Shown in pieces: positions 5,952 through 52,900 of a stretch of DNA of 64,000 nt. Numbering within the stretch: the first letter of the stretch is position 1; every line of letters starts with the position of its first letter. The notes beneath the pieces were generated by a model that was given only the letters and a program-made list of their open reading frames with translations, ran no database searches and was not told where the DNA came from. Made by a program: the position numbers and the translations under genes. Source of the stretch: Candidatus Omnitrophota bacterium (lineage in GTDB: Bacteria > Omnitrophota > Gorgyraeia > 2-01-FULL-45-10); contig JAQUSB010000006.1 of NCBI GenBank assembly GCA_028715345.1, positions 4,096-68,095 of the forward strand, in the 5' to 3' direction.

Positions 5952-6374
5952 CTACTTTTGGCCTCTCTTTTGTGAATCTAAATAGTTCTGCAATATTATC
6001 TGGGCGGCAACCATGTCTATCGCCATTCTTCTCTTACCGCGGCTCATATTCGCTTCCAGGAGCGCTCGCTCCGCCTGGACAGTCGTCAGGCGCTCATCCC
6101 ACGTCTTAACGGGGATACTCACCGCTTTCGCCAGCCCATCCGCGAACTCCAGGACCTCTTTTGTCTTCGCGCTGTGCGTCCCGTTCATACTGATGGGAAG
6201 GCCGACGATTATCTCGCTCACGCCATTCTCCTCGGCCGTCTTTTTTATCCCGGCCATATCTGCCGCGGTGTTCGCGCGGTATATGGTTTCGGAGCCCTGC
6301 GCGGTCAGTAAAAGTTCGTCGCTCATCGCGACCCCTATGCGCTTGGTCCCTACGTCGAGCGCCATTATCCTCAT
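5952..6374 (-). CDS. ruvX: Putative pre-16S rRNA nuclease / Holliday-junction resolvase-like YqgF
   Basis: MRIMALDVGTKRIGVAMSD N-terminus characteristic of YqgF/RuvX. Start placed at the ATG 6372-6374, which forms an ATGA overlap with the upstream gene. The ORF-finder's longer version (to 6470) is an N-terminal over-extension. Confidence 0.8.
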   Translation of the reverse strand: MRIMALDVGTKRIGVAMSDELLLTAQGSETIYRANTAADMAGIKKTAEENGVSEIIVGLPISMNGTHSAKTKEVLEFADGLAKAVSIPVKTWDERLTTVQAERALLEANMSRGKRRMAIDMVAAQIILQNYLDSQKRGQK

Positions 6375-7264
6375 CTTATTTTCACTACCTTTCCGCCCCT
6401 CATCTCGAAGCCCCTTCCTTCGCGCGTCAATATCTTTATGAGGCTCTCGAAACCGCCGAGGTCGTGCCATTCATACGACGCTTCGACGCAATATATATTG
6501 CGGGCCTTTTCCATTATCGCGTAATCGATCGATATGTCCGGCGCGGTCCTGTACCCTGCTCTTACTCCGGACGGATGTGTAACCGCTTTGTATATTCTTG
6601 GCGACAATTTTTTGATCAAACCGAGCAGCGTACCTGCCTTAAAAATGAAAGCACCGGTATTCCACAGGTATTGCCCGCTCTTTATATATTTTTGCGCAAG
6701 CTTCCTGTCGGGTTTCTCCACGAATTTCTTAACTTTCAACATACCGCCGCGGCCTTTGCCTGCGGCGCGTCTATCGATCTTGATATATCCGAAATGCGCG
6801 GACGGGTATCTCGGCTTTACGCCCATGACCACTATGGCATCCGGATTACGTTTAATAAAATTTATCCCGCTCTTTACCGGGGCGACGAATTTCTCCTCTT
6901 CCTTAATATACTGGTCCGTGGGAAGCACGGCCATTATCGCGCCGGGGCTCATCTTTTCTACCGTTGCCGCGGCCAACGCTATGGCCGGAGCGGTATTTCT
7001 CGAGGCCGGCTCCAGGAGCAGGTTCTGCGGCGCTATTTCCGGAAAATCTTTCCTGACCAATTTCGCGTGCGCTTTGTTCGCGACTACGACTATATCCTTA
7101 TCCTTGGCGAAGGCGCGGACCCTGTCAAGGGTCCTGCGGAACATCGTCCTGCGGTCTTTAGTGATGGATAAAAATGCTTTCGGCAGAGCGGCCGTGGATA
7201 AAGGCATCAAACGTTTACCTTTACCGCCGACCAGAACTACCGCGTAAACTTTATTATTCACCAT
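6371..7264 (-). CDS. Nucleotidyltransferase, mannose-1-phosphate guanylyltransferase-like (ManC N-terminal domain type)
   Basis: 297 aa. VVLVGGKGKRLMPLS...PKAF signature of sugar-1-phosphate nucleotidyltransferases. Together with the phosphohexomutase this suggests GDP-mannose supply. Confidence 0.75.
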   Translation of the reverse strand: MVNNKVYAVVLVGGKGKRLMPLSTAALPKAFLSITKDRRTMFRRTLDRVRAFAKDKDIVVVANKAHAKLVRKDFPEIAPQNLLLEPASRNTAPAIALAAATVEKMSPGAIMAVLPTDQYIKEEEKFVAPVKSGINFIKRNPDAIVVMGVKPRYPSAHFGYIKIDRRAAGKGRGGMLKVKKFVEKPDRKLAQKYIKSGQYLWNTGAFIFKAGTLLGLIKKLSPRIYKAVTHPSGVRAGYRTAPDISIDYAIMEKARNIYCVEASYEWHDLGGFESLIKILTREGRGFEMRGGKVVKIR

Positions 7265-8060
7265 GTATGGCCCGCGCCAGGCTTTCGGCTAACTTCACAG
7301 TTTTACCGAGGGCGCCTTTCGTGCCGGCGCCCATCATCTTTACTATTGCGCTTCCGACAATAACACCATCCGCGCATTTCGCGATCGTGCGCGCCTGAGC
7401 CGCATCCGATATCCCGAACCCTACCGCGACAGGTTTATCGGTAATAGATTTTATGGCTTTCACGTTCGCCGCAACTTCCGGAGGAAGCTTCGTTCTCGCG
7501 CCCGTAACGCCGGTAAGCGAAACATAATAAATAAATCCCCTGGACTTGGCGGCGATCTCTTTTATTCTTTTGCGGGGTGATGTCGGCGCGGCCAAAAATA
7601 TCGTCGCTACGACGTTCTTTCTGCCCAAAGCGATAGTTTCACCGGCTTCTTCTATCGACAGGTCGGGGATTATGACGCCGTCTACACCGGCTTCGCGGCA
7701 TGTTTTAAAAAATTTCACAAGGCCGAACTTAAAGACCGGGTTAAAGTAGGTCATAAAAACGAGGGGCATTTCCGTCTTGCGCCTGAGCGCGCGCACCATG
7801 GCGAATATCTTTTTGAGGCTCGCCCCTTTTTTAAGCGCCCTCTGCGAAGCCGCCTGTATCGTAGGCCCGTCGGCAACTGGATCGGAGAACGGGATCCCCA
7901 GCTCGATGATATCGACGCCCGCGCCTTCCAGCGCGAGAACCGCCCTCTCGGTCATCGCGAGCGCGGGATCGCCCGCCGTAATATAAGCGATGAACGCTTT
8001 TTTGCCCTCTTTCTTCAGCTTTTTAAACTTTTTATCTACCCTGTTCATTTTTTGCCTCAT
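7254..8060 (-). CDS. trpA: Tryptophan synthase alpha subunit
   Basis: 268 aa. AFIAYITAGDP...IELGIPFSDPVADGPTIQ TrpA motifs. True start may be the internal MNRVDKK (8048). Confidence 0.9.
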   Translation of the reverse strand: MRQKMNRVDKKFKKLKKEGKKAFIAYITAGDPALAMTERAVLALEGAGVDIIELGIPFSDPVADGPTIQAASQRALKKGASLKKIFAMVRALRRKTEMPLVFMTYFNPVFKFGLVKFFKTCREAGVDGVIIPDLSIEEAGETIALGRKNVVATIFLAAPTSPRKRIKEIAAKSRGFIYYVSLTGVTGARTKLPPEVAANVKAIKSITDKPVAVGFGISDAAQARTIAKCADGVIVGSAIVKMMGAGTKGALGKTVKLAESLARAIHGE

Positions 8061-8436
8061 TCAGAATTATAGGATAATTTATGACCAACTCGTTATCGAG
8101 CAATATCTCGACCCAATATTTTCCCGGCCCCGGGAAAACAAGATTATTGAACCTGGAGATGAGCGTATGATGCCTGTCGATATCGGCAAGCTCGAATGCC
8201 TGCTCGTCCGTCTGGAATATCGGCTGGTTATTTTTGGGGTTCACGATACGTATCTTCTGCGTGAACGCCCCCTCGCCCTTGCACCATCTGTTTGCGACGA
8301 ATAGAGCGGCGTGCGTAGCCGGGAATTTCTTGGCGTTTATCGCTTCGAATAACCCGATGAGCATGAATTTACCGTTGTCCTCGCGTCTAACGTCGTCGCA
8401 CAATACCGAAAATTGCAGGTTTGGTTTTATCTTCAT
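8032..8436 (-). CDS. Hypothetical protein inserted between trpB and trpA
   Basis: 134 aa ORF exactly filling the trpB-trpA gap (TGAtATG junction with trpB, 29-nt overlap with trpA). GGGGAG upstream of the ATG. No motif I recognise. Confidence 0.5.
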   Translation of the reverse strand: MKIKPNLQFSVLCDDVRREDNGKFMLIGLFEAINAKKFPATHAALFVANRWCKGEGAFTQKIRIVNPKNNQPIFQTDEQAFELADIDRHHTLISRFNNLVFPGPGKYWVEILLDNELVINYPIILNEAKNEQGR

Positions 8437-8437
8437 A

Positions 8438-9610
8438 TCACAGCGCTCCCCTGACTATATCTATGTCTTTGTCGCCTCGTCCTGACAGGCAGACGATTAT
8501 AATTTTCTTCTTGGACAATTTTTTTGCCAGCCTCGTCGCATAATAGAGCGCGTGCGACGATTCCAGCGCCGGGATGATGCCTTCTATCTCGGTCAGCATC
8601 CTGAAACCTTCGAGGGCCTGCTTGTCGGTAACCGCGACATATTCTGCCCTGCCTGACTCTTTCAAGTACGAATGTTCAGGACCCACCCCGGGATAATCGA
8701 GCCCGGCCGATATCGAGTGCGCTATCTTTATCTGGCCGTCCTCGTTCTGTAAAAGATAACTCTTCGAGCCGTGCAGGACACCTACGGAACCTTTGCACAA
8801 AGTGGCCGCGTGTTTGTCCGTATTCATGCCGAGTCCCGCCGCCTCGACGCCTACCATTTTTACTTTGTCGTTCATGAACGGATAAAACAGGCCCATAGCG
8901 TTGGATCCTCCGCCCACGCACGCCACGAGATAATCGGGCAGCTTGTTCTCTCTGGCAATGATCTGGCGCCTGGCTTCCTTACCTATTATAGACTGGAAAT
9001 CCCTCACTATCATAGGATACGGGTGCGGCCCGGCAACGGTGCCTATCACATAATACGTATCGCGGACATTCGCCACCCAATCGCGTATCGTCTCGTTCAT
9101 CGCGTCTTTAAGCGTTTTAGACCCTGCGGAAACGCTCGTCACTTTAGCGCCCAAAAGCTTCATCTTGAATACGTTCACGGACTGGCGCCTTATATCTTCC
9201 TCGCCCATGAATATCTCGCACTCAAGGCCGAACAATGCGGCGATAGTGGCGGTAGATACGCCGTGCTGTCCGGCACCCGTCTCGGCTATCACGCGCTTCT
9301 TGCCCATGCGCCTGGCGAGCAGGACCTGTCCGAGCGTATTATTTATCTTATGCGCGCCCGTATGCAAAAGGTCTTCTCTCTTCAGGTATATGCGCGCGCC
9401 GCCCATCATTTCTGTAAGCCTTTTGGCAAAATATAAAGGCGTCTGCCTGCCGGCGTATTCTTTCAGGTAATATTCGTATTCTTTTTTGAACGCATTATCG
9501 GACATGGCCTTCTTATATTCATCCGAAAGTTCATAAAGCACCGGCATGAGCGTCTCCGGCATGAACCTGCCGCCAAAACCGTCAAAGTATCCTTTTTTAT
9601 CGGGTAACAT
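8438..9610 (-). CDS. trpB: Tryptophan synthase beta subunit
   Basis: 390 aa. [14 protein letters not shown]-lysine motif; typical TrpB length. Confidence 0.95.
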
Positions 9611-10233
9611 TATTCAGCCTTTCTCACATTTTCGACAAATTTTTTCAGAAGCTTCGCGTCTTTTTTACCGGGTGCGGATTCGACGCCGCTCGATACATCG
9701 ACCGCGAAGGGCGAAACTTCCTTTATGGCGTGCTTCACGTTATCGGGGTCGAGGCCGCCCGACAGGATCACCGGTTTCAATAACTCGAAATCTTTAAGCA
9801 TCGTCCAGTCGAACCTCTTCCCTGTCCCGCCGATGCAATCGCTCTGGTATGTATCGAATAGGTAATAATCGACGTCGTAATCGTTCACTTTTTTAAGGTC
9901 TGCCTTTGTTTTAAGCCTGAACGCTTTTATCACTTTATATTTCGGCCTGAAATAACTGCAATATTCCGGGGTTTCGTCGCCGTGAAATTGGAGCGTGTCC
10001 AGAAGCGCGTCCTCCGCTATTTTTATCACGTTATTTTTGTCTTCGTTCACGAATACGCCGACCTTCGAAACCTTCGGAGAGAGTTCGTTTATTATATCCT
10101 CGACTTCGGAAGGGTCCACATAACGCTTGGATTTGTTGTAAAGGACAAAACCGAGCATATCGACGCCGAGCCCGGACGCGGTAATAGCATCGACTTTATT
10201 CGTTACCCCGCATATCTTTATCTTTGTCATCAA
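9610..10233 (-). CDS. trpF: Phosphoribosylanthranilate isomerase
   Basis: 207 aa. KICGVT...GVDMLGFV TrpF-type TIM barrel N-terminus; position within the trp operon. Confidence 0.85.
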
Positions 10234-11006
10234 TACCTCATTATCTCGCGCATCTTCGCGGCTATATCACCGGCTTCCATGAACGTCTCTCCTATCAGGA
10301 CGGCGTTCACGCCCAGCGACTTTAAGAACATCACGTCTTCGTATGTCCGTATCCCGCTCTCGGAAACCCTTACTTTATTCTGCGGTATCAGCCGTATCAA
10401 TTTCTGCGTCACGGCCAGGTCCACTTTGAAAGTGTGGAGATCGCGGTTATTGATGCCTATGATGCTGCCGCCCGCGGCCAACGCCTTCTCCACGTCTTCC
10501 TCATTATGCGTCTCCATCAGGACATCCAGCCCGAGCGACGAAGCCGTATTATAAAGGCCTGTCATCTCGTTCGACGACAAGAGCTCGGCTATGAGCAGTA
10601 TGGCGTCCGCTCCGGCCGCGACCGATTCATATACCTGGTATTCATCGATGATAAAATCTTTCCTTAGTATAGGGAGCGAAACATTCTCTTTTACTTTCTT
10701 TATATACTCGAGTTTGCCTTCGAAGAACCGTTCGTCCGTAAGTATCGATATCGCGCTGGCGCCGTGCGCCTGGTAAGTGACGCCGATCTTCACGGGATTG
10801 AAATCGCCGCGTATTATACCTTTGGAAGGCGATGCCTTTTTTATCTCCGCTATCAGATTTATATGGTGCGGCCTCGAAATATTTTTCTTAAAAGAGCTTT
10901 TGACGCATATATTCTTAGTTTCGTTTATAAGCTCTTCTATGGGCTTAATACGTTTGGCCTCTTCGATCTCGCGCCGCTTCTCTTCTATTATCCGTGATAA
11001 TATCAT
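10230..11006 (-). CDS. trpC: Indole-3-glycerol phosphate synthase
   Basis: 258 aa. [12 protein letters not shown]...[10 protein letters not shown]...[11 protein letters not shown] TrpC motifs. Confidence 0.9.
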
Positions 11007-22717: not shown

Positions 22718-23254
22718 CTATGGGTGAAATCCTATCCTGCCCTTTGGTTTTTCTTGCGGCGGCGCCATTAACTGGCGGATCGCTTCGAATATAAGGCCTA
22801 TATCGGCATCGTGCTTGCCTATTTTCTGCTCAAGTTCCGCTAGCTTATGGGCAAGCTCCTTATGAGTCGCGAGAATCTCCCGCAATTTCACAAAGGCGCG
22901 CATAATAGCTATATTGACTTGCGCAGCTCTTTCACTATTAAGAACGCTAGATAGCATAGCTACCCCTTGCTCTGTAAAGACATAAGGAAGGTACTTAATA
23001 TTTTTACCTTTCTTCAAGGTCGCAATTTGCGACCTTGAACCTGATGTTCCATATTGAGAAATCAAGGCTTCTTCCTTTGTTAGTTGAAACATGAAATCAA
23101 CCGGAAAACGCATTATATTCCGCTTTACCTGTTCGTTAAGCCTTTTCGTCGGTACTCCATAAAGCCGGGATAGATCTCTATCAATCATTACCCTGTGACC
23201 GCGAATCATGAAAATTTTATTTTCCACAGTCTCAACTACAGCAACTCCCTTCAT
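22718..23254 (-). CDS. ORF6N/KilA-N-like domain protein (paralog 1)
   Basis: Start placed at ATG 23252-23254 (MKGVAVVE...) with GGAGGG 4 nt upstream. Conserved core IRGxxVMIDRDLxxLYGVxTKxLNxQVKRNIxRFPxxFMFQLTKxE...FTEQGVAMLSSVLNSExA...IMxxFVKLRE recalled as the ORF6N domain family. Confidence 0.75.
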   Translation of the reverse strand: MKGVAVVETVENKIFMIRGHRVMIDRDLSRLYGVPTKRLNEQVKRNIMRFPVDFMFQLTKEEALISQYGTSGSRSQIATLKKGKNIKYLPYVFTEQGVAMLSSVLNSERAAQVNIAIMRAFVKLREILATHKELAHKLAELEQKIGKHDADIGLIFEAIRQLMAPPQEKPKGRIGFHP

Positions 23255-23371
23255 TTTACCCTCCAATCTTGAAGTCACAACTTGTGACATCCTCCCATCT
23301 ATAAAGACGGTTTTCGCCCCGATTTGTTGCAGCCGATTTTAAAATAATTTTGGCGTCTATTTTTCCGGATG

Positions 23372-24630: not shown

Positions 24631-25194
24631 ATGAGAACTTTTGTTGCCATAGAACTTTCCGAAGATATCAAATCGGCTCTCGACCAGGTCGAATCGCACC
24701 TGAAATATTCCGGCGCCGATGTTAAATGGGTTGCTAAAGAAAATATCCATCTCACTCTGAAATTCTTGGGCGAGATCGACGAGGCAAAGTGCGAAAAGGT
24801 AAAGTCGATCCTCGATACGATCGCTAAATCGACCAAACCCTTCGAAATTTCGTTAAAGGATATCGGCGCGTTCCCGAATATCGATCACCCTAAAGTGATC
24901 TGGGTGGGCCTCGATAAAGGCGCTGTTGAGTCGATCGAGCTTGCGGGTAAAATAGATTCCGAGCTCGCGAAGATCGGATTCGAAAAAGAGACCCGCCCGT
25001 TTACTGCGCACCTGACCATCGGCCGTGTCCGTTCTCCGAAAAATAAGCAAGCGATGAAAGAGAAAATTACGGGTTACCAATTGCCAGCGGCTAGCACCCC
25101 GCACTTTAGCGCGGGCACTCTTACGCTCTTTCAGAGCAAACTTACTCCTTCCGGCTCGATCTACACAAAACTTCACGAGGCAAAACTCGCTTAA
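24631..25194 (+). CDS. thpR: RNA 2',3'-cyclic phosphodiesterase (2H family, ThpR/LigT)
   Basis: 187 aa. Two HxT/S-x motifs (HLTLKF and HLTIGR) about 80 aa apart. Confidence 0.85.
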   Translation: MRTFVAIELSEDIKSALDQVESHLKYSGADVKWVAKENIHLTLKFLGEIDEAKCEKVKSILDTIAKSTKPFEISLKDIGAFPNIDHPKVIWVGLDKGAVESIELAGKIDSELAKIGFEKETRPFTAHLTIGRVRSPKNKQAMKEKITGYQLPAASTPHFSAGTLTLFQSKLTPSGSIYTKLHEAKLA

Positions 25195-25703
25195 GGGTGA
25201 AACCCTATCTGCCGCTTCGCTTTTTCCGGCGGCGCCATTAATTGCCTTATAGCTTCAAATATTAACCCTATGTCAGAATCATGCTTATCTATTTTTCTTT
25301 CAAGCTCAGCCAATTTGTACGCAAGTTCTTTATGCGCACTTATAACCTCGCGCAACTTCATGAACGTTTTTATTATGCCTATATTTATGTTTATCGCTTT
25401 TTCGCTGTTCAAAACACTTGAAAGCATCGCTACACCATGTTCGGTAAAAGCATGCGGCAGTACATACGAATGCTTCATTCTTGTGAACTGGTGCCAATTT
25501 GGCACCAGTTCACCCATCTCTTTTTTGGTTAACTGAAACATAAATTCTCCAGGAAAGCGTTGAATATTACGCTTAACCTGCCTATTAAGATGCTTAGTTT
25601 TTACACCATATAATTCGGCTAAGTCTCTATCTATCATAACTTTAACACCTCTTATTACAAATATTTTCTTCTCGATAACTTCCTGTGGTACAAATACTTT
25701 CAT
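25191..25703 (-). CDS. ORF6N/KilA-N-like domain protein (paralog 2)
   Basis: Start placed at ATG 25701-25703 (MKVFVPQE...) with GGAGG 5 nt upstream. The ORF-finder's TTG start at 25757 is rejected. About 55-60% identical to paralog 1 over the core; last ~45 aa nearly identical. Its stop codon overlaps the thpR stop codon (convergent). Confidence 0.75.
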   Translation of the reverse strand: MKVFVPQEVIEKKIFVIRGVKVMIDRDLAELYGVKTKHLNRQVKRNIQRFPGEFMFQLTKKEMGELVPNWHQFTRMKHSYVLPHAFTEHGVAMLSSVLNSEKAININIGIIKTFMKLREVISAHKELAYKLAELERKIDKHDSDIGLIFEAIRQLMAPPEKAKRQIGFHP

Positions 25704-25802
25704 CTTTTCCTCCATTTTTTCTAAGGCAAAACTTGATGTTCCAATTTGGCACTTCAAGATGTCTTCACATATAAAGACGATTTTTCCGGTAGATTTATTG
25801 CG

Positions 25803-37900: not shown

Positions 37901-40900
37901 TCCATAAGCAGAAACATCGGAAATGTAGAATATCGTAAGTATCTTAAAGAAATTTTCCAGGCCTACGCCCGATTTTATCGCCATATCCTTGATCTCGGCA
38001 AAAGCTTCGTCGACGCTTTTTATGCCGCGCACCATCAGACCTATAGAGTCTTTCTCGATTAATGAGACCACAAAATCTATCTCCGCCGGGGTAAATTTCA
38101 GCCTATTCATCAGCTTTCGTATTATCTGAGGAGTGTAAGTATATTGGCGGTTTTTATCTCCTTCATCTTCGGCCATAGGTTTACCTATATCGTGCAGCAT
38201 AAGGGTCAGCCTGAAGAGCGCCGGCACATCGAGGTTGGGTATTTTCGGCAGATCGCCCGCCATGCCCGACCGCTCGAAATTTCTGGCTACTATCAGTGTG
38301 TGCCCGTATAGTTTTCGGCCGGCCGCGGTAAACGCCTTCGCGTATCCGAGCCTGTCACTACTAACAAAATCGAGCGTTTTCCTTATATCATACTGCCCTC
38401 CCCTGCCTCCCCATAAAAGGAGCTCATTTAGAGATTCCCGCAAAGCCGTGCTTTCGCTGTCCGGGCCGGGAAGCGCTTCTTCCAATAGCCTACTGACTTC
38501 ATTTACGTCTTCGAAACCGAGCACCGAGGCTATCTTTTGGCTGTCAGGCAACGGGAAATCCGGAGATATGAATGACAAGGCCACCAAAGCCTTTATCAAT
38601 TCCTTTTTCGAATCATCCGTCAATGCCGACAGCGGGACAGCTTTATTACTGATGACGCCGAAATCCGGGGAAAAAGATATGCCTAAATCTACTAATTTTT
38701 TGGCATCGAAAGCGAGAGCTATAGAGGGTGTCTCTAAAATTTTTCTTCCAAGGCCCATGCCTTTGGCCACCTCTAAAAGAGGGACGCGATTCAGGAACCA
38801 CGTGGGGCGTCTAAGAGATACCTCATTACGGCTTAATATCAACCATATAACGCCGATCCAGGTGCGGTGATAAAGCCATCCTTTATTGGAAGGATTTTCC
38901 TGAAGATATCGGTTAAGGAATCCGGACGATGTATATGCCACCGGAATTAACGGCGCGGGGCGGGATACGGGCGCCATACTTGCGGTATCGGCAAGCAAAT
39001 CGCTGTGCGCCGGCGCGCGTATCCTGTAAGAACCTAATCCTATAGAGCTTCTGACATTAATATGGCGGTTGCCCGACGAGGCCGCGCAAAGCTGAGGAAA
39101 AACTTTTACGGGAAAATCATCCTGCAGGAAATACAACGCCGAGCCTACACAACCGCTCAAATCCTCATCCGCAACGCGCACGCCGCCGGAAGATGAAAAT
39201 TCGGCCAGCTCTCCGCCGAAAGGCGATATCTCTTCCACTCCCATCTCTCTCATTGCAACAACCAGCTTCTTCCAGGCAGGCCTGCAGCCTTCCGTAGTAT
39301 CAAGATCGACCCGCACTCCTATCGAAGGCGTAGGGTTATATGGCGTAACTGACGGCACATCCACGATAACCGCTCTCGTCTCCACGTCCTGCAAATTCTC
39401 ATAATCTCCGCCTATGACAAAAACTACGCCTGTCTCTTCACGTAACGCAGTCTTCAGGTTGGCAAGATAAACCTCTCTTTCATGCGGATCCGCAACGTAC
39501 TTACCTCCTATATGCACGTACAGAGCCGCCCTGCCCTCATGACGCGATATTATCTTAAGCAGATCATTTTTGCGCGCAAGCGCCTCCTGCCAGCTTATCC
39601 TGCGCGACGATATCGGGCCCGGCATAACCTTGCCACCTGATGCGAATAAATCCCGCGGCGCCGGCATTGCAAGCCGCTTTTTCAAGCGCTCTATCAAGTC
39701 TCTTTCGGCAGTCCCGGACGGGAATAACGCCTCTCCCCTTCTCATAGATTCGGCGCGCAGATATTCTTTATAAGCAGCAACGATTCTCTGTTCGGTGCGC
39801 CGCCCTTGAGGCATACCGGACAAGGCCTCGGCGTCGGCTATACTCATCCCCAGCTCCGTCAATATTTCCGTAAAAAAGGTTCTCATATCTTTAAGGTGTC
39901 TGTCCTTCTTCGAATACGGCCCGACTATTATCGTATCTTTATATTCGGATCCAAACCGGCCGAATGCGGCGTCGATATACAAGGCGGGTTTTTCGTTCCC
40001 TGTATACACGGCTGCCCACGCATGATATATATCAGGGGCATCTTTATTTTTGTATAGCCCCGGGGTAACTTCTATTCTCACCTCATCGTTTCCGCCTATC
40101 GGAACATTAAACCGTTCGGACAATAATTCCGCCAAGAGAACGGATATTACGCCAGATTCCCGGGATTGAAGATCGGACACCCCTTCTTCTTTCAGCGCGG
40201 CAAAGAGATCGCCCTCGATACTCTTAATGAAATCGCTTATTTCCGCGTGGCTGACACCCGGATCTGCCCGGTATCCATCCTGCAGTTCTTTCATATCATT
40301 CCGCTCCGTTGGATGCAGCCAATGCTTATAATTCGGCTGGACGTGATAGCGAGCTATGTCTACTCCTTCTTTTTTTAATGCCTCTATAAAGGTCCCATTA
40401 CTTTCTGCCAGGGCTATGACCGTGCCTTTCACAGGGACAGCGTCAAAGAGCCCTTCTTCTTTATATAATGCCGCTGCCGCAGCTATATGATCCGCTATAA
40501 CCTGGCAGGCCCTTGAGGAAAGTTTATTGCTATTTACGAAAATTTTTATACGCGCTCCCGGAACAAGATCGGATGTATTTAACATAATACCACCCGCGTC
40601 AAACCTGTTTTTTATCGGTGAAACCCCTCCGCCTCTTTCGATCATACTATATTCTATTTTAAGATCTTCCCGGAAATTCAAGCCTGCGCTTAACAATATC
40701 GAGGCCATCGCGCCAGCCGGTTTCCCGTGCATATCAACATTCAGCGTCGCAATGGCGCTGGCTTCCCCGTAAGCAGGTGCGCCGCCGCCCTGCAAGTCCT
40801 CAACTGAACGAAATGCCCTTGCGCCGAAATTGCGCGCGGTTCGGATCATTTCGTTTCCGATCTCACGGCCAAGCGTACCGAGAATGTCACCCTTGATCAC

Positions 40901-43900
40901 CGCACTGGCAGCTGCCGCGGCCCACTGGGCACCGTGCCTGCCCGGCCACGGCCTTTGTCTTCCCCCTCCGACTGCCGCTTTCCGGCCTTCCGTCTTCACC
41001 TGCGCCCGGGAGTCCGCCCTAATAACCTTTAACTCATAAACGCGCTTGTCATATTCAAAGATGCGGCCCGTTTCTTTTATTTCGTATCCGCACATCTTGC
41101 CGATCCTTATCAGCGATCCGATCATTTGCGGTTCTTTGTCCCGGGAAAGCGCTGACAACAAAATTACTCCGTCCGGCTTGGACAATGGTAAGACCGCCGC
41201 GATCAGATCATTTCTTTCGCTATCGCCTAATTCATCTAATACGTTCAACAGGAATATCTTAGAGTAATGATTTTTAGGCAAATCAACATCCTGAACGCGG
41301 CCTCGATATGTTCCCGTATCTATGCGCTCGCCTATCATGTCGTAGCCGAATATTTTTTCCATGAGCCTTTTGTAAAAATTTACTTTTCCTTCAAAGCATT
41401 TCGTCTGTTCTATAGCCCCTATATCACGTATTTCATAATATGGCGGCTGACATAAGTCCACTCTTGCACCTTTTATTGCAGAAAAAACGGCATGATCCGC
41501 AAGGGGGCCGCTGCCGATACACAATACGTCATCATCCTGCCCAATGCCGATCCCATCGATCATATAGGCTGTATTAGAACGCATCCAATCATATGTACCT
41601 AACTCCCGATCCATAGCATCGGCTATCACTGAAGCAGTTATGGGCTTAGTCACGGTTGGGCCGGTTTGCCGGTTTTCAGGCGCCATTTTTATATGCACAT
41701 AGGCTGTCTCTTCCACCGTTCCACTAATATCATCAATATAAGGGACATTCAGGCTGAACTTTCCGACAAACCGCACGAAGGGGTCTTCCGGATATCTCGT
41801 AATCGCAAAAGGCTCTACCGAAATATGTATACCGCCGGGTTTAAGGATACGCCCGATCTCTTTCCGCGCTTGAGCGGCCTGGCCGCGGTCAAAGGGCATC
41901 GCCTTTACCGTATCGAAAATGCACCTCTCCGTTACAATGTCCATCATACCGGTAAACTCTTCAGGCAATTCAAGAACGTTCATGCGATATCCGTATATCT
42001 TGGGTGTCGGTTTTCCATGAAATTGCTCGTCGAGGAAATAGTCTAATGCGTAGAAAACGTCCCAACTGACGTCAACAAGATGTATGGCGCCTATCTCCGG
42101 GTATTGCTTGATCAATCTGGTAATTGCTTTAGGATTCGTTCCCGGCCCTATAAAAAGAACGTTAGCGCCTTTAAGGTCCGGCTTGAAAGAATAGGGCCCC
42201 GTATCGGTTTTCATGGCTTCTTCGATAAAATTACCGACGAAATGATATCTGGTGTTCTCCTGCGGGGCAATACTTGTAGAAACATACGCATCTTCTGTAT
42301 TAAAATCGGGTGAAGTGACTCTGTATTTCATCCCGGCTTCCATAATTTGCTGCGCAGTTAACCATTCACGCAGTTCTATAACTTTTAATTTGGGCATTTT
42401 ATCATTTTCTAGTTCACCCAGGCGCTTCTCTATTCTTATTGCTTTCTTCGCGGGGCCATACATACCTATTGCGTTAACGGCCATACCAGGACGCGATTCT
42501 TCTCTCCTGGGGAATACGCGGTCTTCTCCGTTATCCGGCGAGCGCCTGATATCTAAATAGGGGTCGGGATTTGATTTCGATGCCGTTTTTTGTTTATCCG
42601 GCAACGGTACACTAGCCATGAAAACTAATCGCCCGCCCTCGAGTTTAATCCCTATATTTAGTCTTTTAGCGATCTTCGCATACGCTTTAATCTCTTTCTT
42701 GACTATACTGGGCATAACAACATCTTTTTTATATCCCTTGGCATCCTCTAATACCAATTTCATTAAACGGAACCGCACGTCCTCTTTACGCGTTTCATCA
42801 TATACATATAAATAATTTACGTATATTTTGCCCGGGTAATTTACGGGGTCGAGATCATATTTAATATCTCCTAGTCTATGAGGGCCGGACTTTATGGTAA
42901 AATAAACTTTGTGATGCCCTTCCTGATATCGCTCATGTTCGATTTTGAGACTTGCGGGCATAAGGGGTTCTTTGGGGAAAAGTTTGTTATATACCATTAT
43001 GATAATGTTGACTATAACATGGGTAATAACATACCCGGCATAAAGACATATAGCAGGCGCGCCGGGAGATTTAAATGTCCACCAGAGGCTTATAAGCATT
43101 ACCGCAATAGGAGCGGTAAAAACACCCTGGATCGTATCGCTTGCAGAGGGTTCCTTATTATTATTGGCTTTATATAACGAGACATACCTTGGGACATTTA
43201 CATCATGCAATAAAACCAATAGCAGCGACGCGAAGATCACTCCTGCTAACCCGCCAATAATACCGCCAACCCCTTCACCCATATTATGCCCCATGACTCT
43301 GACGCCCTCTTCCAGTAACGGCATTATGATCAAACTGCTGAACCAACTTATACCGGAACTAGAGCTCAACGCTATCGAGCCTGACGGGCGGTCATCATCC
43401 ATATCTTCCAGAGATACAACCGGGGCCTTATCTATTTTCCCGCTGAGAAGGTTCGCTGATTCCCCATCCTCTTTTACCCGCGACCCGGGAAGCCGATCCT
43501 GCGGCGCCGGACGCGGAGTGCCGCCGCCCAGATCTTCCGGCATACCGTCCGACGTTAACCAGTCACCGGCGGGTTTTAAATAGCTTCGCGGGCCATCCGT
43601 GCTTTTCAATGGATTCTGCGGCACGCGGCCTGCGGCCATCTTCTTCACCGCGCCCTGCGGCCGTGCCTCGGACGGAGCCGTTGTGCTCGTTAGAACCTTC
43701 AAATTATTCTCTAAACGCCCTATTTCAGTTTCTATGAGCAAATAATCTATGACATCGCCTCTTATTCCGTTAAAATATTTACCATCCCGCATATCAGCCA
43801 GAAAAACCTTTAATCTCACGATATCTTTTTCTAATTGCCTGAGGGCCTTTCGCTTTATTTCCGGCAGGTTCAACCCCTCGCCTCTTCCTATTCTCGCATC

Positions 43901-46900
43901 AAGCTCTGCCAGATCTTGATGTGGCATGGAGCCGAGCGCCCTTTCTACCTCAAGTTGTTGCGGAAGTATCTTGGCTATGACTTCGTTAAAGCACCCTGTT
44001 TCTGTCAATTCTCTTCTTGTTTCTTTATTGACAAAGCCTATCTGTATATAAGGCAAAAATTTCCTTCTTTCAGAAATGGAAATACCTGATTCATTTAATT
44101 CAGCGGCCAAATACCTCTGCCAGGAAGGATGGCGCTTCCTTACTTTGTCCCGCGCCTTCTCTTCCGCTGCCGCTACCTTATCCTTAAGGGATTTATTTTC
44201 AGGCAGATCTATTATCCTGTGCCATTCTTTAAGAAGCATCCCCTGAGAAACCAGAAATATATTTATCATTTGATTATTGAGCGGGACCCGCACATTACCC
44301 GATTCCGCCTGCGCCCTGAATGCCCTATCTATCGCATCGTAACCTTCTATGTTAGTACGAGCCCTGATCGGCATCGGCTCATCTAAAAGTGTGCTATCCG
44401 TTCTGCTTTCTGCGTACGTTTTTATAACCTCACCCATAGGACGCAGTAAAGAAAAACGCGATAACATACTGCCCGCGCCATACATTACGTTCATCGCGGT
44501 AAAATCAAATTGCCTTCGGGTTACGTCAAGCCGGGACGGCGCCAGCCGTTTCGCGAAAATCTCTTGTTCGTACTTAAAATATTTCAGGTTTTGTTCATGG
44601 TGGATGCCGGAGGTGCGGTAATAGATCAGCGCGGCTAATATTACGGCGGCGGCAAGAGGCAGGACCGCGGCAAGGTAAAGAATAGATACTACAAACAAAG
44701 GAACCGCGTTCAATAAAGCTATCGCTAACGCGTCGGACAGCGGGGGCCCTCTTACTCCCGGAGCAGATATGGCATGAGCGGCGAAGAATAAGGTCCAGGT
44801 GACTGCGATAGAACCGCACAGGGCAAGTAAAAGGTTATAATCCGAAAAATACGCCAAAGCGGCCGAAAGCAATAGATTGCCTATGCCAAACCACTTCTGC
44901 TCGAAGCGGGATTGCCCCCTCTTGTCCCATCCCTTCTTATCGAAAAGATAACTCACCCACGGGATCATTCCGACTATATCGCGTCCTGTTTCCGTTTTGC
45001 GCAGTAAAGTATTTACCGCCTCTGCCGAAAGTTCATACACACCCAGACATTTCTTGACTTCGTAATGTTTCAGATAGCCCAGGATGGTTAAACTGCCGCT
45101 ATCCGGAGACACCGTTAACCCAAAAACTTTACCGAAAGGTACGGGAATATAACCGGCTTCCCTGAAGCCTTCTGCGGTCTCGGTATATAAATGTATGCGC
45201 GCCGGAGACGAAACTGTCTCTTCCGCTATATAAAACCTGGTCCCCGTCCCGTCCCGCCCGTGCATAATACCGACAGGCTGGTTAATAATATAGTTGAATA
45301 CGGCCGCAGCAGGGTTGGCCGCTCCTTCCGCCGATGCTTTTTTGTCATTTACGAACGCTTTCCTGTCAATATCGAAAAAATTGACTATGCTCACCGGCAT
45401 GACGTAGACTTCAGGATGGCCGGCCACTATAAGTATGCGGTTCACCCGATCGATACTCAGGTGCACCTCCATGCATTCCGTGCGGTCATAACCATTACCT
45501 CCGTAAAGCGAAGACCCGACCCTCTCCTTTTCACCGCTCGTAAGATCCATGACCATTATCGATTGCCGGGCATAGTCCCAGTAATATAACTTCCTTTCGA
45601 AAACGGCCATAGACGCAGGCTCCGCCTCCATCTCTTTATCGGCTGTATCGTATTCTTTTATGAAACGACCGTCCGGACCGTATTCAAATACCCGCCCGTC
45701 CCCGGCCGCAGCAAATATGGACTCTTTCTCGTCCACAGTAATGCAATTCGCGTTACTAATATAGTTGCCTTCACCGTCCGCAAGAGAAACGTAAGCGCCC
45801 GTATCCATATTGCGTATCTGCGGGCGGCCCCTTACTACAAATACGATGTTGCCGTTCGCAAGCCTTTCGGCGGAATTTGTCTCGTTGTCGCTTGTCGAAG
45901 TCAATAGCTCGAAAGAATCGGAATATTCGGGGTAATCATAAATTATCGCGCGGGCCCTGAGAGAACCGTCTTTAAGCAATCCTGCCGTCTTAGCTCCGAT
46001 ACCTTTTACTCTATTCGCATATCTGCGCATATCGGCCCCGGCCTGGATATTCAGCGGGATCGCTCTCCACTTTCCGGCTATAGCAGCCTGATCTTTACGG
46101 CTTTTTATCGCATCAGCCTCTTTACGCAGTCTTTTAGCCGCCGCATTCTCTATCTTTTTCCTGTGGTTACTAGCCTCGCGCCATGCCTTTTCCTGTTCAT
46201 CTACCAGCGCTTCATCTTCCGAGTCCATATTCACAAAATATGTGTCAGATGCGGCATACTGTTTATCGCGCCCGACGGCCAGCCGTTTTACCATCCTTCT
46301 TACATAAGAGACAGGTAATGCGTTTAAACCTTCCTTATAACACCGCAGGCTCTCTCTTGCCGCGTCAAGCACATCTAACACTCTGTACAAAACAGCCGGG
46401 GTCAGCTTCCTGTCCCAGCCGGGCATAGAGCTTTTTAACCGGTCTGCAAGTTCGTCCCATACCCTCGCTCGCATCTCTTCGCCCGGCGGCACTATACCGT
46501 CTTTGCATATTCTATCGTAAAAAACTTTCGGGGCGAACATGTCCGCTTTTTCACGCATAGCTTTTAATATCTTTCCGGCCGTATCGGAGTTTAACTCTCC
46601 GGGTTCCAGCCGCCTTAAAGCGGATAGTCTATTAAGAGCGTCGCTCCTATTTCCGTCAAGAAGCATCTTTTCTAACAATGTCTCTGCGCCGAAATCAACT
46701 CTGTCCGCACCCCAATTGGCCTTCACTATACCTACTATTCGAGCCTCTTCATTTATAGCCGCGATAAGCCACTCTCTGCCTTCCGTTATTTCGGTTTCGG
46801 AGATCGAGGCCGGCGGGACGCTTCTTATGGTATATCCCTGGCTTCTCATGAATCTCTCTTCCGCGCCGTATTCTTTTATCATCCGACGTATCTCATGAAT

Positions 46901-49900
46901 ATACAAAATTTCATCGGGGATCCTATCCAGCGACGTTATCCCGAATTGTTCCCGCATCATAACCAGGAATTTTTCTTCCGGCAGTTCAGCTTGCTCCATC
47001 AATGCGCGAAGCTTCGCTATCTGCTCTCCGGATATGGGTGTGCGGAAAAGCTGGGGGCTTGCCGGCATAAGCGGCGTTTTCGGGAAAATTTTATTGTGCA
47101 GTATAACTATGATGTTCGCAAGGACATGATAGATCAAATATTCTTTATAAAGGAATGAAGCAGGCGCCGCGGCATATACATACGTCAACCACAGACTGAT
47201 CAGCGCGACGACCGAAGGCATTATGAAAACAGCCATAGCTGTACCGGCGGCAGAAGGCGCCTTACCGTTATGGTATTTATATATTTCTACATACCTCTTC
47301 GTATTAACATCGTGCAATAGGATCAAGATGGCCGAAGCCGCTATAAGGCCTATCCATCCTCCGGCAAGGCCTCCGATCCCCTTACCCATCTCATACCAGC
47401 ATACCCTGACCCATGCTTCTAAAGGCGGTAATAATGCCAAAGAATAAAACCACCCTATCCCGGAAGGAGGCCTTGACGCAAATCCGCTCTCGCTTTCAGC
47501 ATTCCTTTTAACGGGAACAGCGGCATGTTTGATCTTTTTTACCCGCGCCTTCAAAACATCCGCGATCTTGCGCGAGCCGACCGCGCCCAGCACGCCCTCC
47601 TGCTCCCATTCGCTTTTATTCAAATAAAGAGGCGTATATCCGTTTCCGATCAATAGATAATTCATTAAAAACCATGCCAGGCGATGGTGGCCGCTTGCGG
47701 GATGCGTATTGCCGCCCGAAAGATCCGGTATCGTATCGAATCCCCGTAATAGCACATCCTCTCCGGAAAAATCTGCTCTCCGCCCGCCGCCTATAAATAT
47801 CTCCCGCTGAATGATGTGCGCATAGATATCGCCGGCGTAAGCAATAACATTCTCGCCATTGGCGTATTTATGGTTTACCAGTTCTAGAATATAGCCCAGG
47901 CTTTCTTCGGCTGAACTTATCCTTTGCTGTTTTATTTCATCAGTATATTCCGGATTTTGCCTGTCGCCGCGGTATAATTCGAAGAGAGTGATGATCTTAG
48001 GCCATGTAAGCGGCTCGCCAGATACTGAATTAAAATACTCTGCCGCCTCTATAAAATGGCTATCGCATCCGAGTTTCCGCAAAATATCTATGTCAAGTTT
48101 ACCTATTTGCCGGTCATCCGCCGTTACTGCAAGCGACTGATTTCCCGGGATACGATAATGGCAGATATATGTAGGAGGCAGCTTTCCGGCCGGACGGCAA
48201 TCTACGATATTAACTTCCGGTTCGCTTACCGGCTCCATCTCAGGGAATGAGACCTCCGGATAAAGGTTATCTATACGCAAATTGTACATCTTCCGGCCAC
48301 TGCCTTGGGCTTCATAATGCCTGTATTGGGGTTTTTCCGAAGCGGCATTCAGCCAGTCGCAAAGCTCGCCCGGATCCATAACCCTGCCGGATCCGTCACA
48401 GACGTCAAAACACTCTACGCCTTCGATAAAAGCGATGCCGCCTTTCTTTAGAACCCGTTTGCACTCACGCAGGATCATATTCTTTTGCCGCATATATCGC
48501 AAAGACTCGAACGTAATTATCAGCACATCGAACGAGCCGTCCGGGAAAGGCAGCCCCCGGTCGACATCATGCTCCCTGATATTTTTAAAGAAATAATCGG
48601 TAAATTCCTGATAGTCGGGGCCGAGAAGCCTGTAATGCCTCTCATGCAGCCTTATATTATTTTTATTTATAAAATCGAGCGATAATTCCGGAAATTGCTT
48701 CCTCATATCATAGATATAATGGCCTGCTCCGGCGCCTATGACCAGTCCCCTGGGAGAATGCCCTGCGCTGCGCGCCTCCTGCATTACACCGCGTATAGCC
48801 GGCGCGGCCTCACCGCCGAACATCTCTTCTGTTTTACTGAACCGCCTGCTAACCCAGATAAGCGCAAGGAACTCGTTTTGCTCGGTATTTACTTCAGCTT
48901 CTTTATCATTTTGCAGGACCTCATTTCCCGTATCTGTTCGCCCCTGTCCGGAGATCTCGTCCATGCGCAGGAATGCCTTCGCGCCGAATCTTTGCGCGGT
49001 GCGGGCCATCTCGCGGCCGATCTCGAACCCGGGAGCGCCTATAAGAGCACCTGCCGCCGCATCATAGACGGCTGCCGGGACCCATTGCGCGCCTCGCCTG
49101 CCCGACCACCACGCCGGCCTGCTCTTGCCGCCGCCGGCCTTCCGCCTCTGGCCTGTCTTACCTTTTTTAACCGTGACGGGTTCAGATGGGCCAATATTTT
49201 CATTTTCATCACCGTATTCGTCGTCTTCGTCATCTCCATCCATTTCGTCATCATCGGGCTTCCCTGCAACGGCTTTCCTTAAAAAGTCAGTATCCGATAT
49301 CTGCAGGTCTCCGGCGGAGATGGTCCCGCTTATAATAAGTTTTTTCAGCTTATATTGGGCGGTGGTAAGCAGCATCTTACGGTCATTGGACCTTCTAAGG
49401 TTGAGTCTTTCGACTACGTCTTTTAAGGCCGGCTTCCTTATATAGCCGCTCTCCATATATAATTCAAACGCTGTAGAAATAATCTCCTCAACAGGGAAAA
49501 GAGGTTCCGGATCCATAATAACAGCTTCTTTTCTCCCCATATCTCGCTGCATTTGAACGACATCTAATTCATCTTCAGGATCCATTATTTTCATGAATTT
49601 TTTCGCAGCGGCAGGCGATGGGGCGATAGACCGGCTGAGAGCTTTCAATACCATAAGCGGAAGCGTTTTCGCCAGCGCGTCATTTCCTTTCTCGGGATCC
49701 AGGATATAACTGCACACATATAATCCGCGCTCATCGCAAAAAATAAGCTTCGGCGCTTTCCCGCGTTCCCGTATCTTTTGCGCTTCGAATTCGTACAACA
49801 ATCCATCTTTAAGATATGCTTCCATACGTTCATATGAAGCATTTAAGATTCTCGATATTTCTCCGGAAGATATACCATTGTGCCGGGCGAGCTCCTCTAT

Positions 49901-52900
49901 AAGCCCCCTATTGTCGATCATATCTTTGACTTTCCCTATGGCAACCCTTATAGCCGTCCCTACCTTATCGTATGAGGAATAATCCTTATGCATTTTTTTA
50001 ATCGCGCCGCCCAGCACATAATAGCCTGCGCTGTTCATCTCGGCCATGCGTACCGTTTGAACACCATCCCTGGAACGCGTAAAAATACACTCGATCATTT
50101 CGGTCGCGGAATTTAAACGCATTTCTATTATGAGAGGAGAATAAGAGCTGCCGCCTGTTTCGATTTCGTGCTGAACGCCCCATACCTCGTATTTATATTT
50201 ACCCTTATCATCAGTGAAATCCCGGAATTTAATGCCGTTACGTTTTAAAGGATTGTTGGTATCGACATCCGCGAGGACGGCGCTCAAAATATGTCTGCCG
50301 GCTTCTAGTTCGACATTCACGATTGCCGGCGATGTCGCGCCGGCTTCGGCGGCCTGCGGTTTTGCGCCGGATTTTTTACTTAGCTCAATAATATGCGCCG
50401 GGGCGCTGCGATATTCCTCATCTTTTAAGGAATAATACCTCCACCCGAAAGATTCCTTACTGCCTTTTATATCAAATATATCGCCGCAAACAGCCTTGCG
50501 GAATTCCGCATCTATATCCGGCTCGGCAGGACCTGCCATATTATAATAGATCTTTCCGCCGTCTTTATTCAAAGAGCTTTTGATTATATTCACCAGCGAG
50601 ATCAGGCCGGCCCTTCCCGTTATCCCCGGCGCTTTATCCACCCAGCCCTCAGACTTATACGATCTCGGATTGATGATGTTAACGCAAACTATCCTGTCAA
50701 ATTGAGAACCTATATTCGCGGTTTTAACAGTATCGGATATGCTGCCGGCATGGATAGAAAGCGCTTCTTCCAGGTCGATGCCTGACCGGCCGAAAAATCT
50801 CCTATGGGTCGATACGACCCCTTTCCACTCTTCGATAATATAGCGATTCCCTATATCATATACGACTACCTGTCGCGCCCCTGTCGCAAGCATAAACAGC
50901 GGAATTAAATCCGGGCCTTCGGCTATATAAAGGACGCTCTTGCCTTTCACATCAAGCTCGTCGATTGCCGCGCTTAGGTCGTCCCAATCCATACCCCTTT
51001 TAAATATTGTCCCGTTTTCGAGAATTAAATGCTGATGCCCTCTATTAACCGCTATATCGATAAAGTCTGCCAGAGCGCTATACCCTGTTTCATGCACGGT
51101 ATTTTCGGCCGGCTCTTTTTCCTGTTCCGGTCCAGCCTGATCTAAACTATCTGCCGCCTTGCCCTTTTTCTTTATTGCCGCCTTCTCGATCCTAAATTTG
51201 ATACCGAGAGATTTCAGTTTCTGATTTATATCCGGGACGAGCATATTAATGGCCGAGTGGATAAGCATAGCCACAAGCACGGCTGATACGTTCGCGGCTA
51301 TGGCGGATACGCCTGTGGCATTTATGGCTATAATGGCGGGCAGGGTTACTATGACTGATATGAGGCTAGGGATCGCGGTCTTCTCGATAAATTGTGCAGG
51401 ACTTCTTGCGCTGAATAGGTGCAGTGCGATAAACGCCAATCTGAACAAAATGAAAACGCCGAATGAATTCGGATAGAGAGCCAGAGGCAGTCCCGTAAAT
51501 ATGCCTTCCTCTATTATCGGAGCGATCTCGTCATCGTATTCGTCATCGTCGATCTGCTTACCCAGCTTCCCGGCCAGCCATATTACAGGACGCTTTAATA
51601 TCCATAGAACGCCTTTGGCCGCCGCTGCATTATCAGACATCGTCTTTTCATTCAGATAATTAATGAATTTTTCGACCTTTGCAAGCGGCGGAATGCCTAT
51701 ATCCGGCTGTATTTCTATAATAGTGTGAGAGCTTACTGCGTGCCCACGTCCGAAGCTGCGGCTGATGCCGATATATCCGCATTTATTTTCTCCGTCATAT
51801 ATATCAAGCTGTCCTTCTGCCTTATCTTTTTCATGCTTAAGCATTAAACCGGCAGCCGCGGCCGCCTCTTCTATAAGTTTAATATTAAAAAGGTATTTAA
51901 AGCGTATATGATTGTGCATTACATATTCAACTGCAGGAATTTTTTCTACGCGCTCCGAAAATTTATCTACATGGTTGGATACAAAATAAGCGCTATGAGG
52001 CCTTTGGGACGCGATATGCAGAAGTTCAGCGATAACGGATTTTTCCTCATCGGAAATAGAATATTTTCTCAGCAGAGGGTGCCCGGGATGAAAATACAGC
52101 ATCATGCTATCGCATAATTCATGCCTTGGGTCACTCGCCCCTGAGCGGCTTATTCTCTCCAGACTTTTCTTTTCCCTGTATAAAAAGACAGTTTTAAACC
52201 AGGCGTCTAAATGCGGATACATCGCATGCGAAAAAACTTCCCCTACCTCGTGCGCGATCACCAGTTTATACGTTTCCCTCAAAAATTCTACCTGGTCCGC
52301 TTCGGAAAGTAACGGCCTGGACGGCGCAACCTCTGTGTCGATCATTGCCTGCACCGCGCTAGCTAAAAGATCGCGCGGTATATCCGGTATAGCGATCTCA
52401 CCCCTGTATATAACCCCATCGGGAAGTTGATCCTGAAAGGATATAGCGCCAATATCGCCTTCCATGGGGTCGATCCTGCGGTAAGTGATATCTTTTAGCA
52501 GGAAATCCGGCAAAGGCGCCACCGCATCCTGGATGTCCTTATCACTGAGTATCCGGATAAACCCTTCTCTGGGCCCTTCGACAGGAGCAGTCCTGCCATA
52601 TTTTTTATACTCCTCATTAATATCCCTTTTGATCTCTTCCGGATCCATTTTTTGCGCGCGCGCGGCTTCCCGTACTCCTTTAAAATAATTACGAAGCACG
52701 TACAGCGGAGTTCCGTACATTTCGGCCGAGGAAAGCAATCTGCGCCGCGCCTTTGCATCGGCCATTACCAGATCCGGATATTCTACATCCGCAACCGCGC
52801 CGGCTCTATTGGGATCCGCTATCCTGAGGATGTCATCTGCCCTGGCATAAACGTCGGGATCAAGGTATGGTATCATGACTATATCTTTTGCCACATTTGC

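Follow-up and report, generated by a model that had tools for sequence, protein, structure and literature searches.

In a 64,000-nucleotide stretch of a Candidatus Omnitrophota genome assembly (the window: contig JAQUSB010000006.1, positions 4,096 to 68,095), one giant open reading frame (ORF) encodes two divergent copies—A and B—of a membrane module predicted to span the membrane with four helices. The explanation that best accounts for our results, to which we give about even odds (a probability of roughly 0.5), is that this module is a minimal relative of the intramembrane glutamic endopeptidases, embedded twice in an Omnitrophota giant protein. The giant and the two copies (recovered by BLASTP, self-BLAST and Smith-Waterman alignment) lie as follows:

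25904–58108, minus strand: giant ORF hosting both copies, 10,734 codons or amino acids (aa), from the ORF list
47057–47464, minus strand: copy A of the four-helix module (aa 3549–3684)
42950–43357, minus strand: copy B of the four-helix module (aa 4918–5053)

The duplicated module

Copies A and B aligned without gaps and were identical at 75 of 136 residues (55%). BLASTP with composition-based statistics returned 54% identity and 70% positives over 128 aa, again ungapped (E-value 4e-36), and a windowed self-BLAST of the whole giant protein recovered the same pair (E-value 2.7e-32). The Smith-Waterman score for A against B was 388, compared with 31 ± 5 (maximum 55) for 1000 shuffles of copy B (z ~70), while five other transmembrane (TM) clusters of the giant protein scored only 24–36 against either copy. 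Because the shuffles and the other TM clusters score so far lower, the similarity is not a matter of TM compositional bias, the condition under which an initial annotation of this DNA, made from the sequence, had been prepared to give up the duplication that it proposed. That annotation had described a real duplicated module, had quoted LLHDVN, RYV and NK-FPK-PLMPAS blocks that are indeed present and had placed copy A correctly. Its range for copy B (43030–43470) lies ~100 nt too high and its figure of ~45% identity is too low.

The borders of the module are sharp, as befits the discrete polytopic unit first described: similarity between A and B opens at SGI(G/S)WF and closes directly after PLMPAS, and the flanks of both copies are unrelated low-complexity linkers. 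In nucleotide sequence A and B agree at 60% of positions; synonymous sites are saturated (proportion of synonymous differences, pS, 0.74), the nonsynonymous rate (dN) is 0.38 and its ratio to the synonymous rate (dN/dS) is ~0.11. Saturation together with so low a ratio means that the duplication is ancient, as had been claimed, and that both copies are under purifying selection. When the window was translated in six frames and searched with a hidden Markov model (HMM) of the two copies, no further copy appeared.

We searched 1.84 billion cluster representatives, which stand in for ~15 billion proteins, exhaustively with HMMER and obtained five matches, of which four were genuine (P0001, P0002, P0003 and P0005; E-values 7e-13 to 2e-7). 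These relatives are long multidomain proteins or fragments thereof (1,764–6,107 aa), each with one copy of the module; all four belong to singleton clusters, and one is annotated as Candidatus Omnitrophota. BLASTP between family members gave E-values of 1e-9 to 1e-42. The fifth match, P0004, was rejected as a false positive, being a repetitive soluble protein that matches part of the profile only. Among these ~15 billion proteins the module occurred only inside large multidomain proteins, never free-standing, and it is the only element common to all five host proteins. P0001 and the window protein have two further domains in common, P0002 and P0003 have two other common regions, and the hosts differ in their domains (phosphorylase; Fic, HATPase_c and HPr; SNF2 helicase). 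Since four other large multidomain proteins each have a single copy, sequence comparison identifies the module as a shuffled domain, discrete as first described but not private to this gene.

Within this family A and B are each other's nearest relatives (55% identity, compared with 29–40% to the remaining members), and both carry an 8-residue insertion in the turn between helices 1 and 2 and have lost the motif found at the N-terminal border in relatives. Their mutual closeness and common insertion indicate that the duplication is specific to this lineage. The earlier proposal of a duplication within the gene therefore holds as to lineage, although the sequence does not discriminate between an intragenic event and a fusion of two paralogous genes.

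A degenerate DNA pattern derived from the invariant positions recovered both window copies and gave 57 matches among Joint Genome Institute (JGI) metagenome contigs, two of them true loci, both from already known lineages. Patterns drawn from the two window copies gave 92 matches in GTDB species genomes, among them no relative. Neither the two-copy nor the six-copy alignment had a match in word-indexed protein searches, which used an index that appears not to return very long proteins, and tblastn against plasmids, with the module and a synthetic CPBP consensus as queries, yielded nothing useful.

Anatomy and probable kinship with Rce1-like proteases

The Rce1/CPBP–PrsW–APH-1 superfamily is built on four core TM helices, with a first motif on the first core helix (EExxxR in CPBP proteins; EExxK, EExxR or QExxR in PrsW and APH-1), a conserved His (in the FxxxH of CPBP proteins, on the second helix) and HxxxN/D on the fourth (PMC6588880; PMC4602095). 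AlphaFold2 predicted a comparable number of helices for our module. Model 1, of copy B with a six-sequence alignment, is a four-helix bundle (predicted local distance difference test score, pLDDT, 80; predicted template modelling score, pTM, 0.75) with helices at 16–44, 46–79, 85–109 and 115–139 of a 161-aa copy-B extract, and model 2, with P0002 as target, agrees on the bundle (pLDDT 76). The layout of three to four TM helices in the initial annotation thus agrees with the models at its upper bound, although no more than two or three of the four helices are hydrophobic enough for a strict cut-off.

All six copies of the family agree at sixteen invariant positions: G15, L22, P26, E29, R33, H64, N67, Y75, K76, P83, P96, H126, N130, M146, P147 and A148. 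Helix 1 holds E29 and R33, the end of helix 2 H64 and N67, and the loop from there to helix 3 Y75, K76 and P83; P96 belongs to helix 3 and H126 and N130 to helix 4, with M146, P147 and A148 following just past helix 4. The order of the polar motifs—E-x3-R, H, H-x3-N—is that of the catalytic core of Rce1-like proteases, on matching helices. In the window these motifs are:

43298–43312, minus strand: motif 1 of copy B, EEGVR (E4933, E4934, R4937), in helix 1, aligning to the EE of CPBP EExxxR
47405–47419, minus strand: motif 1 of copy A, EAWVR (E3564, R3568), with the second Glu replaced by Ala
43196–43207, minus strand: motif 2 of copy B, HDVN (H4968, N4971), at the end of helix 2, aligning to the His of CPBP FxxxH
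47303–47314, minus strand: motif 2 of copy A, HDVN (H3599, N3602), at the end of helix 2
43007–43021, minus strand: motif 3 of copy B, HVIVN (H5030, N5034), mid helix 4, HxxxN in all six copies
47114–47128, minus strand: motif 3 of copy A, HVLAN (H3661, N3665), in helix 4

The turns between helices 1 and 2 and between helices 3 and 4 are very short, so residue depth can be read from the helix limits. Because E29/E30, H64, H126 and N130 all sit 9–18 residues from the outer helix ends in both AlphaFold2 models, we infer that these E, H, H and N residues form one polar cluster at about equal predicted membrane depth.

For comparison with CPBP, real PF02517 proteins were gathered with a synthetic consensus used as bait only and were then compared with the module profile to profile, using hhalign. 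The PF02517 alignment is a valid reference, since it finds Rce1 (4CAD; E-value 3e-10) and LyrA (6U0O; E-value 0.005). The six-copy alignment (A2) gave a suggestive match to 37 PF02517 proteins (probability 54%, P-value 1.3e-4, score 31.4), in which EE, the helix-2 His and HxxxN were each aligned in register; 150 local column shuffles that kept the hydropathy profile scored 13.5 ± 2.7 (maximum 23.1; z 6.5). A separate 54-sequence alignment gave a P-value of 8.9e-4, with a score reached by none of 200 shuffles (reversed query 15.8), and the other TM clusters of the giant protein gave P-values of 0.003–0.54.

A further TM module of the same giant, which we call type 2 to distinguish it from the A/B module (type 1), bears on this comparison:

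51221–51532, minus strand: type-2 TM module (EIAPIIEEG ... FIALHLF ... IHSAINM; aa 2193–2296), Rce1/CPBP-like, four-helix

Its sole Pfam match was PF02517 (E-value 0.0066; 17.1 bits, below the gathering score of 22.4). Against real CPBP proteins hhalign returned a P-value of 7e-5 (z 6.5) and against the type-1 profile 0.0015 over 112 columns; direct hhalign of type 1 against a three-sequence type-2 alignment was weak (P-value 0.033). As all three pairwise comparisons agree, type 1, type 2 and PF02517 are mutually consistent, and the giant may hold three protease-like membrane modules. In P0001 there are two type-2 copies, the second directly upstream of its type-1 module. Another TM cluster, between A and B (44609–44926, minus strand; aa 4395–4500; RFEQKWFG, FFAAHAIS, IHHEQN), has weak profile similarity to CPBP (hhalign P-values 0.003–0.013) and is possibly a decayed relative of such a module.

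Several results weigh against kinship with these proteases. The hhalign probability is just 54% and the family alignment is shallow (effective number of sequences, Neff, 2.8). Instead of EExxxR the six copies have E-x3-R, one residue shorter, and copy A has EAxxR, although the Glu pair of the module still aligns to the CPBP EE; the Phe position of motif 2 is Leu, Ile or Ala, while the His is invariant and aligned to that of CPBP. Helix 1 is only weakly hydrophobic. None of the six copies has a match at E≤10 in Pfam (PF02517 and PF13367 included) or NCBIfam, the family profile has no match among PDB sequences (Rce1 included), and a Foldseek search of the PDB with the two models gave no structural match. 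No copy reached the Pfam gathering threshold for PF02517, a superposition on TM4–7 of 4CAD was not obtained, and a plain HMM of real CPBP proteins gave nothing significant in the five host proteins, with its best local matches on the three motifs. On the other side of the balance, the HxxxN of CPBP is present in all six copies, mid helix 4 and in register. As for PrsW, the EExxK/R of its first core helix and the HxxxD/N of its fourth are matched by EExxR and HxxxN, but with four helices, no invariant His on helix 3 and no PF13367 match the module has neither the third-helix His nor the roughly eight TM helices of that family.

Taken together, the module is probably a very divergent relative of the Rce1/CPBP–PrsW–APH-1 superfamily, and it falls outside PF02517 and PF13367 as currently defined. 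The initial annotation was therefore justified in calling it unnamed, but an orphan fold is unlikely given the Rce1/CPBP/PrsW motif set and the weak but reproducible profile similarity to PF02517. With moderate confidence we describe it as a putative new minimal Rce1-like protease module.

With Rce1/CPBP (PF02517; 4CAD, from M. maripaludis) the module has in common a four-helix core whose first helix carries Glu-Glu...Arg, whose second carries His at its end and whose fourth carries HxxxN. Rce1, however, has eight TM helices, whereas the module has only four, with EExxR spacing and without the motif-2 Phe; it adds an invariant Y-K/N-G-x-x-P loop and MP(A/G)(S/N) borders, and it is embedded in proteins of several thousand residues. 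PrsW is similar in its EExxK/R-type motif 1 and in the HxxxD/N of its fourth core helix, and it cuts between Ala and Ser, two residues that also adjoin in the MPA-S border of the module, but its TM helices number about eight and the additional conserved His lies on the third core helix, not the second. PrsW domains fused to toxins are N-terminal, whereas the module is internal in its hosts. APH-1 (a gamma-secretase subunit) and LyrA/SpdC are scaffolds or regulators within the superfamily, and the QExxR spacing of APH-1 resembles the EExxR of the module; both are free-standing with seven to eight or more TM helices, while both module copies retain the full catalytic residue set. If the kinship holds, the module, at ~135 aa and four helices, would be the smallest such unit seen embedded in another protein and would add a new family to the Rce1/PrsW/APH-1 superfamily; the second CPBP-like module in the same giant suggests that giants of this kind may more widely contain embedded intramembrane proteases.

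Other membrane enzymes were considered by eye and set aside: PAP2 phosphatases (whose KxxxxxxRP is similar to the K-x6-P loop, but whose PSGH and SRxxxxxHxxxD are both absent), site-2 proteases (no HExxH), rhomboids (no GxSG) and exosortases or archaeosortases (no invariant Cys). Signal-peptidase sites were likewise considered and dropped.

Possible self-processing and rival explanations

The ends of the module carry a short conserved motif, represented in the window by:

42950–42979, minus strand: C-terminal border of copy B, FPKEPLMPAS (aa 5044–5053), with M-P-A invariant; homology stops here
47057–47086, minus strand: C-terminal border of copy A, FPKTPLMPAS (aa 3675–3684), with M-P-A invariant

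In the four relatives the N-terminal side reads (V/I)MPGS, or in one case LFPAS, and the C-terminal side (L/M/F)MPA(S/N). The strict pattern MP[AG][SN] was observed nine times in the 25,261 aa of the five host proteins, compared with 0.44 expected from composition, and all nine occurrences fall at module borders. The spacing is symmetrical: the catalytic-type Glu follows the Gly of MPGS at a distance of 18 residues, and the Ala of MPAS follows the Asn of HxxxN at the same distance. Elsewhere in the 10,734 aa of the giant, the looser pattern [MFL]P[AG][SN] is matched only by RLPGS (43490–43501, minus strand; aa 4873–4876), 45 residues upstream of copy B, which may be a relic of the N-terminal border or a chance occurrence (1.3 expected).

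As the border motif is conserved like the putative catalytic residues yet lies outside the helices, it should have a function, and the simplest one for a protease would be as its substrate; the candidate substrate peptides are FPKEPLMPASLKIE and TPVMPGSLFG. If the module works as M. maripaludis Rce1 does, water would be activated by the first Glu together with the helix-2 His, and the oxyanion would be stabilised by the helix-4 His and Asn, which would make both copies putatively competent for catalysis. Their preferred substrate would be the giant protein itself, cut at the MPA|S border, 18 residues past the HxxxN Asn, and in relatives also at the MPG|S border, 18 residues ahead of the catalytic Glu. 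In the giant the predicted scissile bonds are A3683|S3684 and A5052|S5053, and the outcome would be three membrane-anchored fragments of about aa 1–3683, 3684–5052 and 5053–10734; in relatives with both border motifs the module would excise itself.

Such cleavage in cis at the module borders is speculative and is argued from analogy. PrsW cuts RsiW at Ala168|Ser169 (PMC8767453), and for polymorphic toxins that carry a PrsW domain, release of the toxin by autoproteolysis has been predicted (PMC3482391). Cleavage of Omnitrophota giants has been suspected, but whether and where it occurs is an open question, with no cleavage points known, and the only proteases proposed so far for cutting them, without proof, are C39 and S8 peptidase domains (10.1101/2023.11.21.568195). 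Pfam found neither domain in the window giant. The C39 and S8 domains (West-Roberts et al. 2023) resemble the module in being protease-type domains inside Omnitrophota giants; they differ in having soluble Cys or Ser peptidase folds, whereas the module is intramembrane and its own borders carry a candidate cleavage motif. Two features of the border motif count against cleavage in cis. Both window copies keep the C-terminal PLMPAS only, without an N-border motif, and the motif, with a pLDDT of 86 in model 1 (block 141–150) and 54–61 in model 2, may be a structural cap. The full proposal—a self-processing cassette that recognises MP(A/G)|(S/N) at its own two borders and dices the giant into membrane-anchored enzymes—is accordingly one that we advance tentatively and think unlikely as it stands. 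If true, it would give Omnitrophota giants their first defined cleavage signal and protease, a membrane-embedded counterpart of viral polyprotein proteases; the module turns the question of whether and where giants are cut into a prediction at the level of residues (A3683|S3684 and A5052|S5053). Its generality is limited by rarity, with five host proteins among ~15 billion.

A Rce1/CPBP-like protease, or a binding module derived from one, might instead act in trans, its border motifs being structural rather than cleavage sites; substrates could include membrane or secreted proteins, in the maturation of peptides or immunity to them, or in the processing of partner or prey proteins. We hold this to be just as unlikely. 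The homology evidence for it is identical, known CPBP and PrsW enzymes do cut other proteins (Rce1 acts on CAAX proteins and PrsW on RsiW), and both the missing N-border motif of the window copies and the confidently placed C-terminal tail of model 1 are consistent with it. It fits poorly with a module that was nowhere free-standing among ~15 billion proteins and with a border motif conserved like catalytic residues, on both sides and at equal spacing in four of the five host proteins.

Two further readings dispense with proteolysis. The module could be a non-catalytic membrane anchor or scaffold—a pseudo-protease of the APH-1 or LyrA/SpdC type, or a topogenic double hairpin—that threads the giant through the membrane so that both flanks end up on one side. 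Omnitrophota giants do carry TM helices at a uniform density of ~2% of residues (10.64898/2026.06.07.730766), hydropathy gives nine TM clusters in the window giant, the neighbours of the module differ between host proteins as they would for a generic anchor, and APH-1 shows that the fold can be non-catalytic (PMC6588880). Nevertheless, a plain anchor is disfavoured because five intramembrane polar or charged residues (E, R, H, H, N) that anchoring does not need are invariant at 28–55% overall identity and a dN/dS of 0.11, and the other TM clusters of the giant have no such conservation or duplication; we regard this reading as improbable. More doubtful still is a new fold unrelated to Rce1/CPBP, in which the E/H/H/N cluster binds a metal or proton, as in a sensor, channel or small transporter, or performs lipid-directed catalysis. 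The lack of any Foldseek neighbour or of a Pfam, NCBIfam or PDB sequence match would suit it, His/His/Glu clusters are also typical metal sites, and CPBP proteins have nothing that corresponds to the invariant Y-K and N-G-x-x-P loop; against these stand the register of three motifs with real PF02517 profiles at a z of 6.5, which composition-matched TM clusters do not reproduce, and the triangular consistency of the three pairings among type 1, type 2 and PF02517. An embedded relative of the intramembrane glutamic endopeptidases thus remains our preferred reading.

The host giant protein and its setting

Coding potential runs through the entire 10,734-aa ORF, with Pfam domains spread along its length, and translation likely starts at an ATG at 58048 (MNSEAS...). 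The Pfam domains of the giant protein include TPR and:

aa 247–331: GNAT (PF00583)
aa 1117–1227: HATPase_c (PF02518)
aa 3124–3228: S-adenosylmethionine (SAM) methyltransferase (PF08241)
near aa 7920–8050: protein-kinase-like domain
near aa 9650–9830: histidine phosphatase

Giant proteins of Omnitrophota range from 10,000 to 147,000 aa, and membrane-anchored multi-enzyme giants with a signalling and regulatory Pfam module have been catalogued (Nielsen & Lui 2026; 10.64898/2026.06.07.730766), in work that covers 5,761 Omnitrophota proteins of 10,000 aa or more. The window protein has the defining features of that class: a length of at least 10,000 aa, many TM helices, the methyltransferase, HATPase_c and GNAT set, and an Omnitrophota genome. 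As its length, membrane threading and domain set match those of the catalogued giants, the host is a membrane-threaded Omnitrophota multi-enzyme giant protein. The alanyl-tRNA synthetase (AlaRS) encoded in the window is 66–78% identical to those of Omnitrophota metagenome-assembled genomes and at most 47% identical to those of other phyla, and the neighbours of the giant ORF are an ordinary chromosomal set (recA, alaS, cinA, ligT, pgpA, pgsA, a MiaB/RimO-like gene and ftsK). An exact look-up of the RecA encoded in the window matched no record.

The N-terminus of the giant (57934–58048, minus strand) is a hydrophobic anchor ending DIAWA-H. That of P0002 (locus L081) ends alike, in DIAQA-A, and the two look like a common signal-anchor or signal-peptide-like leader. 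The first domain behind the anchor of the giant is the GNAT acetyltransferase, expected to be cytoplasmic.

The giant also contains a second internal repeat (48941–49153, minus strand, aa 2986–3056, and 40781–40987, minus strand, aa 5708–5776), ~70 aa long and 46% identical (E-value 6e-11), in which an Arg/Gly-rich stretch (GGGKSRP..GRRGAQW) is followed by an amphipathic segment (EIGxEMxRTAxxFGAxAF). Its copies, which have no Pfam match and no counterpart in the four homologous large proteins, sit ~500 aa ahead of module A and ~650 aa beyond module B. The region just upstream of copy A (47534–48067, minus strand; aa 3348–3525) is homologous to aa 625–830 of P0001 (35% identity, E-value 5e-27); a degenerate Fic-like HPxxGxxR motif (HPASGHHRLAW) can be seen by eye, which Pfam does not recognise here, but P0002 has a recognised Fic domain.

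A tRNA scan and an Rfam scan of the whole 64-kb window found nothing. Directly adjoining the 3′ end of the giant gene is a group in which two paralogous ORF6N-domain genes (22718–23290 and 25191–25757, both minus strand) flank cinA and a LigT-like 2′-5′ RNA ligase gene. GC skew is negative across the whole window, in agreement with the placement of nearly all genes on the minus strand.

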